Source: Armatimonadota bacterium (lineage in GTDB: Bacteria > Armatimonadota > UBA5829 > DSUL01). From it: 64,000 nucleotides of DNA. Location of the stretch: assembly GCA_039811685.1 (NCBI GenBank), contig JBDHZC010000005.1, forward strand, positions 96,001 to 160,000, in the 5' to 3' direction. Both the position numbers and the translations under genes were made by a program. Each line of letters opens with the position of its first letter. Position 1 is the first letter of the stretch. The notes beneath the pieces are model-generated. The model was not told where the DNA came from. It made no database searches and was given only the letters and a program-made list of their open reading frames with translations. Shown piece after piece: positions 13,352 through 21,015 of the stretch.

Positions 13352-14203
13352 TTGCTGTGGGTTCTGCTGGCTCTGGCGGGTCTGATCGCCTATGCGCTTC
13401 TGATAGAGCCTTTCGCCGTGCGTCTGCGGAGGGTGACGATGTGGTGCCCGCGTCTGCCGGAGAGCTTCGACGGCTTTACCGTTCTTCAGATCAGCGATGT
13501 GCACATGGAGAAGATGGGGCTGCGGGAGCGCCGGGTCGCGCGTCTGATTCGCGGGCTGACGCCGGATGTCGTCGCCATCACAGGGGACCTTGCCGGGGAC
13601 GGGCCTTCGGGGGAAGCCCTCGCTCAGATAGCGCTTGAGAGCCAGCCGCGCCTCGGCGTCTTTGCGATCTCCGGCAACTCCGATGTGCGCCATCCGGAGC
13701 AGTACCGCGAGGTGCAGGCGGCCATGCGCTCGCTTGGAGTGGTCTTTCTGGAGAACGAACACCGGGCGCTGGAGCGCGGCGGAGAGAAGTTTGTGCTGGC
13801 CGGTGTCGAAGACCCACACACGGGGCTGGACGATCTGAACAAAGCTCTCGAAGGCGCGCCGCCGGGAGCTTTCATCTTTCTTCTTGCCCATGCGCCCTCC
13901 ATCGCCATCCCCGCTATCGAAAAGGGCGTGGACTGCGTGATCAGCGGACACACGCACGGCGGGCAGCTTGCGCTCCCCTTTTTGGGACCTCTCTTTACCC
14001 GCTCCGGGCACGGCAAAGCGCTCGCGGCGGGTCACGTTTACGGGCAGAAGCTGAAGGACGCGGTCGAGGTGGACCCTGGCGTAACCCAGATCTACGTCAG
14101 CCGGGGCATTGGCGCGAGCTTCCTGCCCGTGCGCTTTCTCAGCCCTCCGGAGGTGGCCATCTTCACCCTCCGCCGCGCTTCCGGCCCTCACCTGAAGACC
14201 TGA
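13352..14203 (+). CDS. Membrane-anchored metallophosphoesterase (YkuE/YaeI-like)
   Basis: SDVH, TGD, GNSD, LAH, SGHTHGGQ, YVSRGIG; N-terminal TM segment. Confidence 0.85.
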   Translation: MLWVLLALAGLIAYALLIEPFAVRLRRVTMWCPRLPESFDGFTVLQISDVHMEKMGLRERRVARLIRGLTPDVVAITGDLAGDGPSGEALAQIALESQPRLGVFAISGNSDVRHPEQYREVQAAMRSLGVVFLENEHRALERGGEKFVLAGVEDPHTGLDDLNKALEGAPPGAFIFLLAHAPSIAIPAIEKGVDCVISGHTHGGQLALPFLGPLFTRSGHGKALAAGHVYGQKLKDAVEVDPGVTQIYVSRGIGASFLPVRFLSPPEVAIFTLRRASGPHLKT

Positions 14204-14271
14204 TGGAGCGCGCTCGCCGGAGCAAGGAGGCGCAGAACGGGTAACTTTTTCCGGAATATCACAAAGCCTTC

Positions 14272-14300
14272 TTGACTCCCGCCCACCCGGATGCTAGCGT
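14272..14300 (+). promoter_or_regulatory. Sigma-70-type promoter
   Basis: TTGACT-N17-TAGCGT with TG extension. Confidence 0.55.
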
Positions 14301-14344
14301 ATGTCTGCGGGCGCTACGCGCGTCCAGCCAGGGAGGACCGGCAG

Positions 14345-14719
14345 GTGTTCAGACGTCTGGCGTCAGTGGTCATTGCGCTGGCTGCCGCAGGAGTTCTTAT
14401 TCTGAGGTCGGGTCAGAAGACGGCGCAGCCTTCTGGCTACGAGCTCGCACGTGAAACGCCACCTGAGATTTCCATAGTCGCGGGCGAGCGAACCACTATT
14501 TTCGCGAATCTTTCGCTGGATGGCAGTCCTGTTGATGGGGCTACGTTCGACATCACCATTAGCGGCGGCCGACAGCTTCCCCGCAACCACGACCCATCCA
14601 CGATCGGCGCCGCCAAAGCCGCCACCCCGGGTGACGGGATCACGCTGCGCTCCGCCGGAAGCCCGGGGGTACCTGCCGGTGGCCACCGCGTCTTATCATC
14701 TAAAGTAGGACCTTCATGA
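14345..14719 (+). CDS. Hypothetical protein with N-terminal signal/TM segment
   Basis: GTG start after GGGAGG; MFRRLASVVIALAAAGVLIL. Confidence 0.55.
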   Translation: MFRRLASVVIALAAAGVLILRSGQKTAQPSGYELARETPPEISIVAGERTTIFANLSLDGSPVDGATFDITISGGRQLPRNHDPSTIGAAKAATPGDGITLRSAGSPGVPAGGHRVLSSKVGPS

Positions 14720-15243
14720 TGCAGCACGACACGCGCCCGCGACAGGAATACGCCGGCGGGTACCGCTTCTGGGGCGCAAGGACGTGGCTGCTGTACGCTG
14801 GCGGCTTGGCGGCTTACCTTATACTGTGGCTGCTCGGCCTTGCGCTCAAACCTGTGCCCCCTGTCTTTCCCGGGGCGCAGGTGACTGGCGGCCAGACCTC
14901 GGCCGCACCGCTGTTTTCGGCGCGGGTTACGCGGGATTTCGTGAGCCATGCGGATTTCGAGAAAGTTCTCGCGTGGTACCGGGTGGCGCTCCAAAGCACT
15001 TCCGCGTCACCCGTAAATGGGCTCTTCGTCGATACGGCAGGAAAAGCTGGCAGCCGTAGCGCTCGTCTCCTTCACCCTTCCTGGCGCGGAACCACCCAGG
15101 TGACGCTCCGCCAGGCGTCGCAGCAGACGCAGATACGCCTGGTCAGCTCGGGGCAGCCCCCGCCTTCGCCTATCGCCCTCATGGCTCTATTGTTTGGAGT
15201 GTGGGTGGCGCAGCGGCTGCGCCGGTTTCGGATAACGGAGTAG
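14716..15243 (+). CDS. Hypothetical membrane protein (N- and C-terminal TM segments)
   Basis: ATGA overlap with the previous ORF; two hydrophobic segments; basic tail. Confidence 0.6.
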   Translation: MMQHDTRPRQEYAGGYRFWGARTWLLYAGGLAAYLILWLLGLALKPVPPVFPGAQVTGGQTSAAPLFSARVTRDFVSHADFEKVLAWYRVALQSTSASPVNGLFVDTAGKAGSRSARLLHPSWRGTTQVTLRQASQQTQIRLVSSGQPPPSPIALMALLFGVWVAQRLRRFRITE

Positions 15244-15340
15244 CCCTCCGCGTCAGATAGCGCCCTACTTATTCCGCATGCTTCTTTCATCCAGCATCGA
15301 TTTCATCTCTGTGCGACTACCCATGATACAATTCGGCTGC

Positions 15341-15369
15341 TTGACGCGGTGCAGAGGCTGCACTAGAAT
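15341..15369 (+). promoter_or_regulatory. Sigma-70-type promoter with a palindromic operator in the spacer
   Basis: TTGACG-N17-TAGAAT; spacer contains GTGCAG-AGG-CTGCAC. Confidence 0.7.
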
Positions 15370-15476
15370 AAGCATCCCAATACGGGCGCGCTTCGTGCTG
15401 GAGCGCTAACAATGCTGTTTCCGGGAGCGGCGACCAGCGATGAAGCCGGTGAAAGACAAAGGAGGACCTGACGACT

Positions 15477-16859
15477 ATGAGGCTGTCTACAGTATTTCGG
15501 CTGTTGGCGAAAGTGAGCTCAGCTTTATCTGCTGTGCTCATAGTAGCCTTCGCTACCGGGCCGCTTGCGGCTGACTACGGCAATATTGTAGTCAACGGTG
15601 ACTTTGAGAACGGACTGACAGGCTGGAATCTGGCCACCCCCACAAAACCAGCCTACAACTACAACAATCCCCCGATCTCCCCACAGATATTCAGCGGTAA
15701 CGGTCCTGTAAAGACCCAAACCTATCAGGGGACGTTTGGAGACCCGGTCAATACCATTCCGGCAGCCTACAACAATCACTCCATCGGGTGGTTTCGCTCG
15801 GGACCGCCCGCTGACAACTACGGAACGCTACCGGGCGGCTTTCTCTACAACTTCGTTTATCAGAACATCTTCGTAACGCCCGGCGTCGAGTACACCATTG
15901 AAAGCGCCAACTGGCAAGCCTCGGCCTGGAACACCTACGACGACTCGAAAAACAGCATCAACGAGATCGCTGCGATGCTGCTGATCCGTATGGATTCGCA
16001 GCTCGATACTCCCTACGACCCGAACGATCCGTCCACCTACAGCTTCCGGAGCACCTGCTGGAATCTGGCGTCGCTCGGAAACTGGGTTCCAAAGCAGTTG
16101 ACGCCGGGGTCTAAGTTCACCAGTACAACTGGGCGCGTCCAGATTCAGGTTCACTTTCAGGACGGCTACTACGACCGGGACTACGGGGACGCCTACACCA
16201 ACGTGATGATGGACGACCTCTACATCGGGCTGGACAAGCCGCTTGTCGCTCCGCCGACAGTTGCGTCTATCGCTGAGGCTAAGTCCAATCCCGATAGCAG
16301 CACGTTCAACATCGCCAATGACGCTGTGGTTACCCTTGCGGGGCAGGGCTTCTTCTACGCCCAGGACCCGGACGGCACAGCGGGTATCCACGTGAACTCG
16401 AGCGCCACTGTCGCCGTTGGAGACACGGTCAAGCTGGATGGCGTGACGATCGTCACGAACCCGGACGGTGAACGTCAGCTTAACGTTCTGACAGCCACGG
16501 TCACGGGCACAGGGACCACCAAAGTCCGAAAGACCACTAACAGAACGATTGACGGCAATGGCTATCCGGACGGTGAGATCCCGCTCAACCAGGGGCTGCT
16601 CATGAAGACCTCGGGCCGCGTGATGGACTCGCAGGTGGACCAAGACGGTAACCCGGTCCTGTTCATTGACGATGGCTCAGGTGTGGACGGCGGCAATACG
16701 CTCGGGCTGAACGGACTGCGCGTGATTGGCGACGGTACGGTGGATCTGTTTACGAACTACATCTTCACGGGTGTCGTCTCATCGGTTCGCGTGGATGGCA
16801 GGATCATCCGGGTCCTGCGCCTGCGCGGACCCTCAGATATCGTGCGCGCCGACCTGTAG
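15477..16859 (+). CDS. Secreted protein: CBM-like beta-sandwich domain plus ~200-aa C-terminal domain (probable tandem OB-like repeats)
   Basis: AAGGAGG RBS; signal peptide; NGDFENGLTGW; SIAEAK...FFYAQD...GLLMKTSGRV...FIDDGSG...RLRGPSDI. Confidence 0.85.
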   Translation: MRLSTVFRLLAKVSSALSAVLIVAFATGPLAADYGNIVVNGDFENGLTGWNLATPTKPAYNYNNPPISPQIFSGNGPVKTQTYQGTFGDPVNTIPAAYNNHSIGWFRSGPPADNYGTLPGGFLYNFVYQNIFVTPGVEYTIESANWQASAWNTYDDSKNSINEIAAMLLIRMDSQLDTPYDPNDPSTYSFRSTCWNLASLGNWVPKQLTPGSKFTSTTGRVQIQVHFQDGYYDRDYGDAYTNVMMDDLYIGLDKPLVAPPTVASIAEAKSNPDSSTFNIANDAVVTLAGQGFFYAQDPDGTAGIHVNSSATVAVGDTVKLDGVTIVTNPDGERQLNVLTATVTGTGTTKVRKTTNRTIDGNGYPDGEIPLNQGLLMKTSGRVMDSQVDQDGNPVLFIDDGSGVDGGNTLGLNGLRVIGDGTVDLFTNYIFTGVVSSVRVDGRIIRVLRLRGPSDIVRADL

Positions 16860-17003
16860 AGAACTCTCTTCTACGGGTGGTAGTGGCCGGAGCGGGAAGC
16901 TCCGGCCCGCGCCGGAAACGGCAGGGAAGCTCTTACGAGCTGTGATACTGACATCATCTACAGCTCACGCGGGACACAGCGGTCCCTTAGAAAGGACATA
17001 GTC

Positions 17004-17831
17004 ATGCGAGGTTCAGTGCTTTTGCGCCTCATAGCGCCACTGCCGGTTGTCTTGGCAATGGCCGCGCCGGCGTTGGCGGATTTTGGCAACGTCATAACAA
17101 ACGGCGACTTTGAAAACGGTCTCACGGGCTGGTCTGTTGCCGGCCCCAGCAAGGCGGGGTATAACTACAACGATCCTGCACTGCCGCCACAGACCTATAG
17201 CGGAACGGGGCCGGTAGATCTGCGAACCTACCAGGGCACGTCCGGTGGTTCGGCCAGCGCGTTCACGTCTGCTTACAGCGGATCGTCTCTCGGCTGGTTC
17301 CGCACGGGTGACCCCAGCACCAACCACGGATCACTTCCCGGCGGATTCCTGTACAACTATGTGTATCAGGACATTTACGTGACTCCGAACGTCGAATACA
17401 CGATTGAATCAGCAACGTGGCAGGCGTCGGCGTGGAATGGCTACAACAACGCCAAGAACGATGCCAATGAGATCGCCGCGATGTTTCTCGTTCGCATCGA
17501 TGGGCAGATTGATTCGATATACGATCCGAACGACTCGGCAACATTTGCGTTCCGCTCAACGTGCTGGAATTTGGCGTCACAGGGAAACTGGATATCCAAG
17601 AGCCTGGCGGCGAACTCGAAGTTCACCAGCACCACAGGCCGCGTGCAGGTGCAGCTTCACTTCCAGGACGGGTTCTACGACAGGACTTATACGGGCGAAA
17701 ACACGGACGTAGGATTCGATAATCTCTATATCGGACTCAACAGACCCGTTGTGCCGGAGCCTTCAAGTGCATTAGCGCTGTTTGGTGGCCTTGTTGGCCT
17801 GGCGCCCTTGGTGAGGCGCAAACAGAGCTAG
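17004..17831 (+). CDS. PEP-CTERM sorting-domain protein, paralog of the upstream gene
   Basis: Signal peptide ending ALA; C-terminal VPEPSSALALFGGLVGLAPLVRRKQS. Confidence 0.92.
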   Translation: MRGSVLLRLIAPLPVVLAMAAPALADFGNVITNGDFENGLTGWSVAGPSKAGYNYNDPALPPQTYSGTGPVDLRTYQGTSGGSASAFTSAYSGSSLGWFRTGDPSTNHGSLPGGFLYNYVYQDIYVTPNVEYTIESATWQASAWNGYNNAKNDANEIAAMFLVRIDGQIDSIYDPNDSATFAFRSTCWNLASQGNWISKSLAANSKFTSTTGRVQVQLHFQDGFYDRTYTGENTDVGFDNLYIGLNRPVVPEPSSALALFGGLVGLAPLVRRKQS

Positions 17832-17859
17832 ATCCGGTGACTGGCCGGAGCGCAAGGCG

Positions 17860-17900
17860 GGCGCGGGGGCTTCTCTCTATTGAGCCTCCGCGCCTTTCTT
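17860..17900 (+). terminator. Intrinsic terminator after the paralog pair
   Basis: 12-bp stem GGCGCGGGGGCT/AGCCTCCGCGCC followed by TTTCTT. Confidence 0.7.
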
Positions 17901-18035
17901 GTACGCTCGTCGCTAAGTCCGGGCGCCGGGAAACGTTCAAAGGCAAAGGAGATGGGCTCTCTTTCGGCAAATACGAGTGCGGCCTCCTATAGATTTTGGG
18001 TGATGGAGGCCGTTGCAAAGACCAGGAGGTAACCA

Positions 18036-19988
18036 ATGCGAAGAGTCACCGCAGCTATAGTGGCGGGACTGACTATCTACGGGGCAACGACGGCCTGTAG
18101 CCAGGTGGTGATTAGCGGGCGCGTAAGGACAGCTTCCAGCCCGCAGTCCGCTGACCTGACACCGGTTGGCGGAATGTTTGTGTATGCCAGCCTGGACGGC
18201 TCCGGCAGCCAGTCCCTCGGGTCTCGCACCTGGGAAACAGAGCCGGGAGGATGGTACAGAGTGTCGGGTAGCGCCGGGCGCTACAGCATGGTTTTTTCCA
18301 ACCCCGGCGACGGGATTCGGCCTGCGATTCTCACGAACATCTTCACCAGAAAAGGAGACGATATTGACGTCAGCCCCCATCTCAATCTGGACTACGCTGT
18401 CCTGGAGTTCAAGGGCTGGGACACCAAAGCCGCCCACACCTACTACCAGCCGTTCACCGCGCGTGGACGCAGCATAACACAGGTATCCTTTCGCCTGGCC
18501 ACCGATGGCGTGGACGGGCAGGGTCCGGGCGGCCAGAACATGCTGCTGTCGATAGTGGAGGTCGGGCCTGGCAAACCGGATACATGGAAACAGACCGGCG
18601 CGACAATGCTCGTGCGCGACGTTGACACAGGCGGGGTAAAAAACTATGCCTACGGCGCCGGCTGGAACTCGGGCGAAGCTCCGACTGTTCCGGGGCGGCG
18701 GTACGCGGTGCGCCTGACAACAGAGAAATCTGATGGCAGCTTTCAGCCCTTCTGGAACAAGGCTGCCTCCGGTAACGGCTGCTACAGGGAGGGCGGTGCG
18801 CCGGGGAGCACAGACGGGTGGACCGGCAATGACATGTGCATGGTGATCGGCAGCGACTGTGACGGCCTTCTCATCCCCTACAACAAGCGCACCCTCAAGC
18901 CCTATCAGGACCTGGATGCGACACAGTCCGCGAGGAAATGGTCTCAGACCTATGTAGCGCAGGGTCGCAGCCTCGCCTCTGTTATCCTCTACTCCGCATG
19001 GAGCGGCGTTCAGCCGGGGCTATTCCGCCAGCGCGCGGCAGTGCGGGTTCGGGAAGGCGGACCAAACGGCCCTGTCGCCGGAGTGGAGAAAATCGCCACT
19101 GGCAATGGCATGCATACCGGAGACGCTTCCTGGGGAACATGCGGGGCCGTGTATTCACCCGGGGAAGTCCCGCTCAAGCCCGGAAAGACTTACGCAATAG
19201 AGTTTGAAAGCATTGAAAATATCGAGTCCCTGCACGACTATGTGGACATTAAAGATCATCCAACCGACGTGACACCCGCGTTCCACCCGTATGCCAAAGC
19301 CGCGCCCGACAGCTACCCGAAAGGGCGCGCCTACCAGGATGGCAAGCCAACTGACCTCGACCTGGATATGCAGATCATCGAATATGACAGAGATCTACCG
19401 CAGTGGAATCTGGCGGAGACGGGCCCGAATCTGATTGCGAATAGCTCTATGGACAGGGGAGCTCTCAGTGACGACGTTAAGGCTTTTGACGGATGGAGTC
19501 CTTTCCGCGTGAAGCCGGAGACGCAGCTTCAGGCTGTGGCGGACAAGTGGGACAATGGCAACCGCCTGTTGCGCGTACGCGGCGGCGGCACACAGCGAAG
19601 AGTCAACGGAGGCATAGAGGGCAAAGCAGCGGACGGCGGCTTTGTCACCGAAGTAGCGAAGGTAGCTGGCTCGCAGACCTACCGCCTGAAGGGGCGTGTC
19701 CGCTCTTCGTGGCCGGTGGATGACAAGCACTGGCTGGCTGTCGGCATTGACCGCACAGGGCAAACGGCAAATCCGGAGTCTTCGACAATTGAGTGGACCT
19801 ATCTGCCACCCACGCACAGCCTCTGGACACCGTACCTTTCCGAGCCGGTGCGCCCGGCTGAGGGCAGTCTGAGCGTCTGGCTTCGAGGTTACTGTTCAGA
19901 AAAGAGCGGCTTTCCGTTCACTGCGGACTTCGACGATTTTGAGTTGAGACAGGTGCAGACCAGTGTCTCCGAGGCAAACTCCAGATAA
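18036..19988 (+). CDS. Secreted multidomain beta-rich protein with C-terminal CBM-like domain
   Basis: AGGAGG RBS; signal peptide; two related internal units (QPFTARGRSI / QTYVAQGRSL); NLIANSSMD...VGIDRTG...FDDFELR. Confidence 0.75.
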   Translation: MRRVTAAIVAGLTIYGATTACSQVVISGRVRTASSPQSADLTPVGGMFVYASLDGSGSQSLGSRTWETEPGGWYRVSGSAGRYSMVFSNPGDGIRPAILTNIFTRKGDDIDVSPHLNLDYAVLEFKGWDTKAAHTYYQPFTARGRSITQVSFRLATDGVDGQGPGGQNMLLSIVEVGPGKPDTWKQTGATMLVRDVDTGGVKNYAYGAGWNSGEAPTVPGRRYAVRLTTEKSDGSFQPFWNKAASGNGCYREGGAPGSTDGWTGNDMCMVIGSDCDGLLIPYNKRTLKPYQDLDATQSARKWSQTYVAQGRSLASVILYSAWSGVQPGLFRQRAAVRVREGGPNGPVAGVEKIATGNGMHTGDASWGTCGAVYSPGEVPLKPGKTYAIEFESIENIESLHDYVDIKDHPTDVTPAFHPYAKAAPDSYPKGRAYQDGKPTDLDLDMQIIEYDRDLPQWNLAETGPNLIANSSMDRGALSDDVKAFDGWSPFRVKPETQLQAVADKWDNGNRLLRVRGGGTQRRVNGGIEGKAADGGFVTEVAKVAGSQTYRLKGRVRSSWPVDDKHWLAVGIDRTGQTANPESSTIEWTYLPPTHSLWTPYLSEPVRPAEGSLSVWLRGYCSEKSGFPFTADFDDFELRQVQTSVSEANSR

Positions 19989-20076
19989 CGGCTTGATCAC
20001 CGCGACTTCTGAGCGGCCGTGAGATGATGCGCGAGTGGAATATTCTCACGCGCTGGCATGGGCGCGACAGCCGGGA

Positions 20077-20871
20077 CTACGGACAGGGAAACTCATCTGA
20101 CGTGCCCGGCTGTCCGCGGAAGATGTAGCGGCCATCCGGGTACTTTCCATCGTTCCACGTCACTCCGCCGGGCACAGTGCCCGCGTGGCCGTCCAGAAAG
20201 CTGACACACGCCCTGCCGTTGTGCCGGGTTGTTGAGGCGTCCGTGCCCTGAAAGCGTTCGTTGTTGATTTGAGTGCACGCAGGGTCGCTGCCTTCCTCGA
20301 TCTTGCCAACCGCCTGATCTACCACGTGAACCACGGACGAAGGGTTGGCGAACATCGAGAGCTTCATGCCGGTAGTGCGCGCTTTCTCGTAGTCCGGCAC
20401 GCGGCATCCGGCCCAGGTCGTATAGCCGTTCACGGCATAGGTCCACTTCAGATCTGTGCCAAACTGGTTTTTGTACCAGTTCTGGTACTTCGGCGGGCAG
20501 GATGGACACATCACCATTACTTTGGTAGTGAGATAGCGCGTAATCACACCATCAAACTGACCGGTAGTGACATTTTCGTGGGTGACTGTGGTAAGGTGGA
20601 ACGCCTGGAGGCCCGGAAGAGTCTCTTTGTAGTCACCCGCGTACATAAGAAACGCCTGTGTTATCTGGCGCACTGTCTGCAGACACTTCGTCTGCCGCGC
20701 GGTCTCTCTGGCGCGGGCAAACACAGGGAAAAGGATCGCTGCGAGAATGGCGATGATGGCGATCACAACCAAAAGCTCGATTAGCGTGAATCCGCGCACT
20801 TCAGCAACAGGGCTGCGCCCGGTGAACAAGCGCCTGGCGTAGATCACGCGACCAGAATCTTCATTGACCAT
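20077..20871 (-). CDS. Prepilin-type N-terminal cleavage/methylation protein, DUF1559-like with H-X9-DG motif
   Basis: GFTLIELLVVIAIIAILAAILFPVFARARE; RHNGRACVSFLDGH; ATG chosen after GAGGGG. Confidence 0.92.
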   Translation of the reverse strand: MVNEDSGRVIYARRLFTGRSPVAEVRGFTLIELLVVIAIIAILAAILFPVFARARETARQTKCLQTVRQITQAFLMYAGDYKETLPGLQAFHLTTVTHENVTTGQFDGVITRYLTTKVMVMCPSCPPKYQNWYKNQFGTDLKWTYAVNGYTTWAGCRVPDYEKARTTGMKLSMFANPSSVVHVVDQAVGKIEEGSDPACTQINNERFQGTDASTTRHNGRACVSFLDGHAGTVPGGVTWNDGKYPDGRYIFRGQPGTSDEFPCP

Positions 20872-21015
20872 TATCCCCTCACTCTCCACTACATTGTTGA
20901 GTGATTATCAAAGTGGGAACTCCCGCTTGACCCATCAATGATACTCTGTTTATCTCCCAGACCTCAAGAACAACGCTGCCGCACGGTTTCCAGGACCCGT
21001 TGAAATCTTTGACAC

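Follow-up and report, generated by a model that had tools for sequence, protein, structure and literature searches.

Two co-directional genes on a 64,000-nucleotide stretch of DNA from an uncultured sludge bacterium of the Armatimonadota (positions 96,001 to 160,000 of contig JBDHZC010000005.1, assembly GCA_039811685.1, GTDB lineage Armatimonadota; UBA5829; DSUL01; hereafter the window) encode the same predicted exported domain with two different C-termini. The first gene, open reading frame (ORF) A, continues past this domain, here called the passenger, into a tail of about 200 residues, and the second, ORF B, ends in a PEP-CTERM sorting signal. The two genes are separated by a spacer of 144 bp and consist of the following elements:

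15477..16859, forward strand: ORF A, 460 residues; signal peptide, jelly roll resembling carbohydrate-binding modules (CBM) of families 4 and 16, and a tail with a tandem OB (oligonucleotide/oligosaccharide-binding) fold
15477..15572, forward strand: predicted Sec signal peptide of A, residues 1–32; basic start, hydrophobic core and PLAA followed by DYG, as read from the translation
15573..16247, forward strand: passenger domain of A, residues 33–257; beta-sandwich resembling carbohydrate-binding modules
16248..16523, forward strand: first OB barrel of the tail, residues 258–349, directly after KPLVAPP
16524..16856, forward strand: second OB barrel of the tail, residues 350–460, with a DDGSG loop and a terminal R..SDI strand
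17004..17831, forward strand: ORF B, 275 residues; signal peptide, jelly roll as in A, and PEP-CTERM
17751..17828, forward strand: PEP-CTERM sorting signal of B; VPEPSS, hydrophobic helix and RRK

Aligned without gaps, residues 33–257 of A and 26–250 of B are identical at 142 of 225 positions (63.1%), which reproduces exactly the count and the two reading frames of a prediction made earlier from the DNA alone (the original prediction). BLASTP found 156 identical residues out of 263 (E 1e-116), and its alignment ends at A263/B256, in agreement with the earlier remark that the similarity stops where B enters its PEP-CTERM signal. Read from the translation, the N-terminus of B is a typical predicted Sec signal peptide; in the model of full-length A (predicted local distance difference test score (pLDDT) 80.2, predicted template-modelling score (pTM) 0.69) residues 3–26 form a helix, which lies within the predicted signal peptide. 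The same model is good for residues 120–255 and poor for residues 30–120, with a pLDDT of 46–66 in the N-terminal third. Foldseek matched the passenger to CBM16 (2zex_A, target TM 0.60), CBM4-2 (2y64_A, 0.56) and the C-terminal domains of Cry1 protoxins. The Pfam family CBM_4_9 (PF02018) reached 19.2 bits on B (cut-off 25.9), covering profile positions 1–27 only (the GDFENGLTGW start), and did not match A; scans of full-length A against Pfam and NCBIfam returned nothing at E≤1. The models point to a passenger that is CBM-like in fold, and membership of a CBM family is not claimed. The domain is rare: 8 matches were obtained from 5.8 billion proteins, and the family has 9 known members, of which 7 carry PEP-CTERM and 2 the OB tail. 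Among the ORFs of this genome jackhmmer found no passenger besides A and B, and the 31 relatives yielded a single orthologue, in G005, in the PEP-CTERM form.

The C-terminus of B consists, in translation, of VPEPSS, then ALALFGGLVGLAPLV, then RRKQS, a complete tripartite layout. TIGR02595 scored 19.9 bits on B (cut-off 16; 23.1 bits in the genome scan) and Pfam PF07589 18.3 bits, under its cut-off of 20.7; B is a standard member of the PEP-CTERM/exosortase system (TIGR02595 and PF07589 for the signal, TIGR02602 and PF09721 for the EpsH/Xrt enzyme). A runs on for 203 residues past the junction (residues 258–460): KPLVAPP is followed by a folded domain, and neither a hydrophobic helix nor a basic end was found in it.

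Fold and spread of the tail

The structure of A residues 258–460 was predicted with AlphaFold2 from an alignment of 82 paralogous tails, which yielded two beta-barrels with a pLDDT of 94.2 and a pTM of 0.90. By VIA-align the first barrel matched YgiW (1nnx_A) with a Z of 9.7 (model residues 3–86, root mean square deviation 2.3 over 78 residues), and the second matched the N-domains of MCM (4me3_A) and AspRS (5gro_B) and RPA14 (8aaj_C) with Z values of 10.7–10.8. In profile searches of the PDB the first half hit 9sf8_A, an EEP-domain protein, at its N-terminus (E 1e-4) and also YgiW (E 2.7e-3), and the second half hit the archaeal RPA14 OB fold (8c5y_C, E 6.6e-5). In a Foldseek search, tandem-OB DNA binders ranked first (Teb1, POT1, HIN-200 and SSB were among the fold matches), at low TM because the barrels are differently oriented. 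The two barrels are mutually homologous (hhalign probability 95.7%, E 8.5e-9, 67 columns), so the two similar units that had been noticed in the tail are real. Conserved in the tails are Tyr37, Lys12, Arg76, Arg158 and the D-G-S loop (tail numbering). The predicted structure, together with the profile and fold matches, confirms the tandem OB fold that had been suggested for this region.

No Pfam or NCBIfam family names the tail, and we found no description of it in the Armatimonadota/Armatimonadetes literature on PEP-CTERM, the OB fold or exosortase. The tail of A itself matched nothing in Pfam at E≤1, PF01336 (tRNA_anti-codon) and PF04076 (BOF) included. Among 82 isolated tails at the same Pfam threshold, tRNA_anti-codon was seen in 20, RMI2 in 12 and BOF in 8, and with NCBIfam a YgiW-type model was seen in 7 and ExeM/NucH (NF033681) in 4. 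One full-length paralogue passes the cut-off of PF01336 (32.2 vs 27), and tRNA_anti-codon, in one protein, was the only family whose best Pfam stretch lay inside a tail. Like the tail, BOF proteins (YgiW, 1nnx) are exported OB barrels, and it is the first barrel of the tail that resembles them; however, they are small, stand-alone and built of one barrel, whereas in the tail two barrels stand in fixed tandem, fused to large passengers.

The nature of these relatives raises the question whether nucleic acid is the ligand of the tail, which would then tether exoenzymes to extracellular DNA in the sludge floc or in a biofilm. Its best sequence matches are to RPA14 and an EEP nuclease-type protein, tRNA_anti-codon and ExeM/NucH are among the families that recur in isolated tails, and its fold matches are DNA binders. 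The surface nucleases (the EEP-domain protein of 9sf8/9sf9 and ExeM/NucH) likewise carry OB barrels on exported enzymes; those barrels are N-terminal, confined to one enzyme class and presumably DNA-binding, whereas the tail is acidic, mostly C-terminal and found on dozens of enzyme classes. The median isoelectric point (pI) of the tails is 5.2 and their median net charge −4, with a pI below 6 in 60 of 82 and above 8 in 6, and both barrels of A have a pI below 5. Since the acidity argues against DNA as the partner and likeness to an OB fold says little on the ligand, we regard DNA binding as quite improbable.

To determine how common the tail is, all six-frame ORFs of at least 60 residues in the 3.4-Mb genome (16917 ORFs) were searched with an iterated hidden Markov model. 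The tail was present in 84 ORFs, always as a single copy. An N-terminal hydrophobic 12-mer was found in 80 of these 84 proteins, compared with 462 of 937 other long ORFs. A Pfam scan of the other 83 full-length tail proteins (53 at E≤1e-3, 30 at E≤1e-5) identified as passengers S8 subtilases, glycosidases of the GH5, GH10, GH39, amylase and arabinofuranosidase types, two kinds of peptidoglycan amidase, beta-helix proteins, an EEP nuclease, phosphoesterases and an FGE-type domain, with many Ig, fn3 and CarboxypepD_reg spacers. In 70 of the 84 copies the tail ends within 17 residues of the C-terminus. The remaining 14 are internal or N-terminal and followed by 34–475 residues; they occur only in proteins that still look exported, which touches in part on the internal contexts named beforehand as a point against a surface role. 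C1_170001, for example, has the tail at residues 22–218, right behind the signal peptide, with an FGE-sulfatase domain after it, and one protein of 257 residues consists of little beyond the tail itself.

In a public representative library the tail profile retrieved 9845 clusters at E≤1e-3, of which 2685 remained at E≤1e-30. A protein with a 42%-identical tail is named a hypothetical protein of an Armatimonadota metagenome-assembled genome by NCBI, and the Atlas neighbours are likewise from Armatimonadota. Some metagenomic relatives (e.g. P0024 and P0026) hold 2–6 tandem-OB copies per protein, unlike the single copy in this genome. The tail occurs in 48 of 53 genomes of the class, with 2–104 copies each among the first 31 searched. 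Over the phylum, 37 of 151 genomes match it and only 12 have many copies; the 25 matching genomes outside the class have just 1–3 weaker matches each, and many copies per genome are found only in this class. The remark in the original prediction that this domain ends many secreted proteins of Armatimonadota is verified in part by these counts.

Position and spread also bear on the idea that the tail is an export or sorting tag that a dedicated outer-membrane machine would recognise and possibly remove, comparable with the C-terminal domain of cargo of the type IX secretion system (T9SS; TIGR04183, Por_Secre_tail, of Bacteroidota). In both cases a single C-terminal folded domain is attached to many unrelated exported proteins and has expanded in one lineage (for the tail, to 20–100 copies per genome in one class), as sorting signals do; most copies of the tail are at the extreme C-terminus, one per protein and on very diverse cargo, and in A the tail sits where the paralogue has a true sorting signal. 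The T9SS domain, however, is an Ig-like sandwich of 70–100 residues, strictly terminal and removed after transport, and the tail has neither this fold nor a strictly terminal position; no TIGR04183 match above the cut-off was found in the genome. The 14 copies with residues following, C1_170001 among them, the protein that is nearly all tail and the relatives with several copies are difficult to reconcile with a tag, as is the ligand-binding fold of about 200 residues, and a candidate machine was not identified. The internal and N-terminal copies weaken the earlier proposal of an export module, and we consider an export tag unlikely.

Relationship of the tail to the PEP-CTERM/exosortase system

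The genome contains three exosortase genes of the EpsH type, which score 189–196 bits on PF09721 and pass TIGR02602 and TIGR04178; none of the three reached a subtype cut-off. PEP-CTERM matches number 43. Three tandem PEP-CTERM paralogues of 233–235 residues, with 65–78% mutual identity, lie at C1:775676-778798 of G000 (forward strand), just upstream of a divergent gene with an OB tail, C1_773026. In many genomes of the class there is, besides an exosortase of about 300 residues, a second exosortase match in a frame of 520–650 residues, which would be a fusion to a further domain.

Swapped anchors between paralogues are a known way to recognise anchoring modules. Protein sorting by PEP-CTERM and exosortase (EpsH/Xrt) has been described (PMC1569441; bioRxiv 10.1101/2023.06.07.544157); in the passages on paralogs of the latter source, no statement of this principle was found. 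The tree of the passenger family, rooted on the most distant group, places the two OB forms (A and the 83%-identical P0156) in one clade (100/100) nested among PEP-CTERM forms, so that PEP-CTERM is the older state; the grouping of A with B is weak (53/59). KPLVAPP of A aligns with KP[IV]VPEP of the other members and, judging from this alignment, is a degenerate relic of the PEP motif. When the bodies of the 43 PEP-CTERM ORFs were compared with the 84 tail proteins by BLASTP, six pairs of PEP-CTERM and OB-tail paralogues were found in the genome, with 31–68% identity, three of them adjacent. In four of the six the tail starts at the position of the PEP motif or within 10 residues of it, and the OB protein C3_258839 retains FVPEA before its tail. 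A fifth such junction was found in the relative G001 (L070). This recurring interchange with PEP-CTERM at a common junction (four pairs here, one in G001) supports the earlier view of the tail as an alternative C-terminal module.

Genes of the two kinds are also neighbours more often than expected. Within 300 bp of a tail gene lie 13 of the 43 PEP-CTERM ORFs, all 13 co-oriented, whereas random placement gave a mean of 4.0 (standard deviation 1.9) and a maximum of 12 in 2000 trials. In G001, 9 of 40 PEP-CTERM ORFs are within 500 bp of a tail gene, with 3.1 expected, a value reached in 6 of 2000 trials. At all 12 loci fetched from five relatives the tail gene is next to one or two PEP-CTERM genes; a common passenger was detected at 1 of the 12, so the adjacency is mostly no by-product of recent duplication. 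These data largely bear out the expectation that the tail would end proteins with signal peptides and unrelated N-termini, often beside a PEP-CTERM paralogue: the N-termini are unrelated, nearly all begin with a hydrophobic stretch and PEP-CTERM genes are neighbours, though paralogues in some cases only. Direct linkage between exosortase and tail genes was not found, the nearest tail gene being 18–50 kb from each of the three exosortases.

The adjacency could indicate that the tail docks on PEP-CTERM proteins, or that A pairs with B via their common domain; small proteins anchored by exosortase would then be the scaffold for enzymes with the tail, in the manner of cohesin and dockerin. That small PEP-CTERM genes (about 170–300 residues) stand co-oriented beside tail genes, here, in G001 and at every locus fetched, fits such docking, and so does the strict co-occurrence of the tail and the exosortase system within the class described below. 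Yet a PEP-CTERM neighbour exists for just 13 of the 84 tail genes; at 11 of the 12 fetched loci and most loci here the neighbours have no detectable domain in common with each other or with the tail protein, and docking would require a single conserved tail to recognise a wide range of unrelated partners. In a complex prediction made without controls, A (33–460) with B (26–250) as partner reached 0.00 in each of two runs (mark 0.32), which is neutral on pairing of A with B and on docking of the tail. We think docking of this kind very unlikely.

Each of the 53 genomes of the class either has tail and exosortase together (48) or lacks the two (5), and no genome is discordant; PEP-CTERM matches in the first 31 genomes show the identical split (27/4). 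The negative genomes (G011, G021 and G014/G020/G186) belong to three genera in two families and are 84–99% complete. All 5 retain DUF1559 pilin-like genes and 4 of them secretins, so that the loss is not a general loss of envelope systems. S8 proteases number 0–1 per negative genome, compared with 3 in a positive genome of similar size, and those of the negative genomes end in a different, non-OB domain. In G011 and G021 the single S8 protease (L065 436-2973 and L066 460-2922, both on the reverse strand) has a common C-terminal region of about 250 residues with GWN..GNPF and W..QWI.V motifs, which may be a different tail in the place of the OB module.

A simpler explanation of the co-occurrence would be lifestyle, the tail being a generic carbohydrate- or substrate-binding module for the substrates of the enzymes, A and B the outcome of an ordinary duplication and later domain shuffling, and the tail without functional link to the exosortase system. 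Many of its partners are polysaccharide-degrading enzymes, which commonly have substrate-binding modules, the co-occurrence rests on three negative genera, and the negative genomes are also poorer in S8 proteases. The same tail is found, however, on proteins that have no substrate in common (proteases, amidases of peptidoglycan, a nuclease, phosphoesterases and proteins that are not enzymes), and the swap is repeated and precise at the PEP motif. We give little credence to the absence of any link.

Possible role of the tail

The original prediction read the tail as an alternative anchoring, export or lattice-forming module that displays one binding domain at a second place in the envelope. Its reading is partly supported: it appears right in kind, as an alternative C-terminal module for surface placement, and unproven in mechanism. 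The swap with PEP-CTERM, the gene linkage and the co-occurrence with exosortase are new to the present analysis. A binding fold, present once per exported protein, on passengers without a common substrate and in the position of a sorting signal, suggests a module for retention or address rather than for substrate binding. Specifically, we infer that the tail is a non-covalent module for retention at the surface or in the matrix, parallel to and perhaps dependent on the exosortase system, a reading that we consider about evenly poised between right and wrong; an export tag and DNA binding are less likely.

A and B are a tail-swapped pair of paralogues, both with a predicted Sec signal peptide for export and both with a CBM4/16-like beta-sandwich. 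B retains the ancestral PEP-CTERM; its C-terminal helix would hold it in the inner membrane until one of the three exosortases cleaves and sorts it. A has lost the membrane helix and basic end, in whose place, exactly at the PEP motif, stands the tandem OB cassette of about 200 residues, a class-specific module that has been added to about 80 exported proteins per genome. According to the retention reading, the two barrels would bind an envelope or matrix polymer and thereby keep the passenger at the cell after export, and the cassette would achieve by binding what PEP-CTERM achieves by processing. Its ligand or docking site may in turn depend on the exosortase system, for example on an exosortase-associated exopolysaccharide layer; that tail and exosortase are gained or lost together, along with the gene linkage, makes such dependence probable, on the strength of two or three events.

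Compared with PEP-CTERM, the tail takes the same position in paralogues, is found on a similarly broad exported set and occurs within the class only where exosortase does; it differs in being a folded domain of 200 residues without PEP motif, membrane helix or basic cluster, and is therefore no exosortase substrate of the known kind. SLH, LysM and dockerin domains are non-covalent surface-retention modules, folded units found at one end of many exoproteins, that bind an envelope polymer or a scaffold. The working principle proposed for the tail, with its presumed ligand binding, is like theirs, whereas the fold is unrelated.

Several observations weigh against the retention reading and against a tie to the exosortase system. 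The closest relatives of the barrels in sequence and fold bind nucleic acids, not envelope polymers. The share of tail genes with a PEP-CTERM neighbour is small, and among the 13 neighbouring ORFs C5_167003 (104 residues) has no clear PEP motif, while of the tail ORFs on the other side of such pairs one, C12_1700, is fragmentary. The enrichment was not significant in G018, a more distant genome (2 of 12 vs 0.6 expected, reached in 222 of 2000 trials; 92 of 111 tail matches were used, at E≤1.5e-19). Exosortase is far wider in the phylum than the tail (109 of 151 genomes vs 37 of 151), and three genomes of the class have exosortase with only 1–4 tails, so that dependence can be one-way at most. 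The three negative genera represent two or three events only; the genomes of the class are kin and not independent, and a shared ecology could give the same co-occurrence.

A bolder version, in which proteins reach the surface by a second display route that depends on exosortase, with the tail as their address label, and in which the tail binds the exopolysaccharide or surface layer built by the exosortase/PEP-CTERM system, is rather doubtful. If it were true, about 2–3% of the genes of the class would encode proteins hung non-covalently on that scaffold, and pairs of the A/B type would place one binding domain both as a covalently sorted and as a reversibly docked protein. To our knowledge, exosortase systems are widespread while the destination of their substrates is poorly understood, and the envelopes of Armatimonadota are almost unstudied. 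Finding the ligand of the tail would probably reveal the structure that receives exosortase substrates. The tail would also be of practical use as a marker when the surface and matrix proteins of these sludge bacteria are to be predicted, and it could serve as a display tag.

Transcription signals and neighbouring genes

The signals around the pair are:

15341..15369, forward strand: sigma-70-like promoter match (TTGACG, 17 nt, TAGAAT) upstream of A, with 10 of 12 consensus positions
15460..15466, forward strand: ribosome-binding site AAGGAGG of A, read directly; the ATG at 15477 starts 10 nt on
16885..16907, forward strand: 9-bp G+C hairpin without U tract in the spacer between A and B (z −3.0, by folding)
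17859..17902, forward strand: hairpin and U-rich run resembling an intrinsic terminator after B, found by folding

The pattern search that yielded the promoter gave 2 matches in the region with 1.6 expected from shuffles, so the site at 15341–15369 is weak taken alone. The hairpin at 17859–17895, in a fold of 17845–17910, has an energy of −41.7 kcal/mol (z −5.3, with none of 200 shuffles equally stable) and is followed by the U-rich run; a pattern scan for terminators listed nothing at 17860, where a terminator had been placed earlier. No Rfam family was found within 14000–21000 of the window.

Contigs from RNA libraries of activated sludge cover A and B, and in three of four runs, from two studies, they bridge the spacer (X1 16416–17758, X2 16699–17183 and X4 16862–17105). 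This fits co-transcription without proving it, and A and B are probably transcribed together; against this it must be noted that such contigs may contain DNA and are no proof of a single transcript. The contigs leave 15297–15393 and 17819–18012 uncovered, which is no evidence for transcript ends. The spacer hairpin at 16885–16907, read through by contigs in three runs, might determine how many transcripts of A are made relative to B.

The neighbouring genes are unrelated to A and B and encode an M17 aminopeptidase, a metallophosphoesterase, two small ORFs, a secreted protein of 650 residues and a DUF1559 pilin-like protein. The two small ORFs (142 and 175 residues; 14291–15243, forward strand) overlap, have hydrophobic segments and no family match, and lie immediately 5' of the promoter match of A. 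ORF C (18036–19988, forward strand), the 650-residue protein, starts like a signal peptide and matches nothing in Pfam or NCBIfam at E≤1; lying downstream of the terminator of B, it probably forms a unit of its own. A CBM4_9-like pattern, N..S..D.G...D....F.GW, opens its C-terminal third. At 20077–20889 (reverse strand) a prepilin-type N-methylation motif and a DUF1559 protein are encoded, a family with 7–82 matches even in the genomes of the class that have no OB tail.

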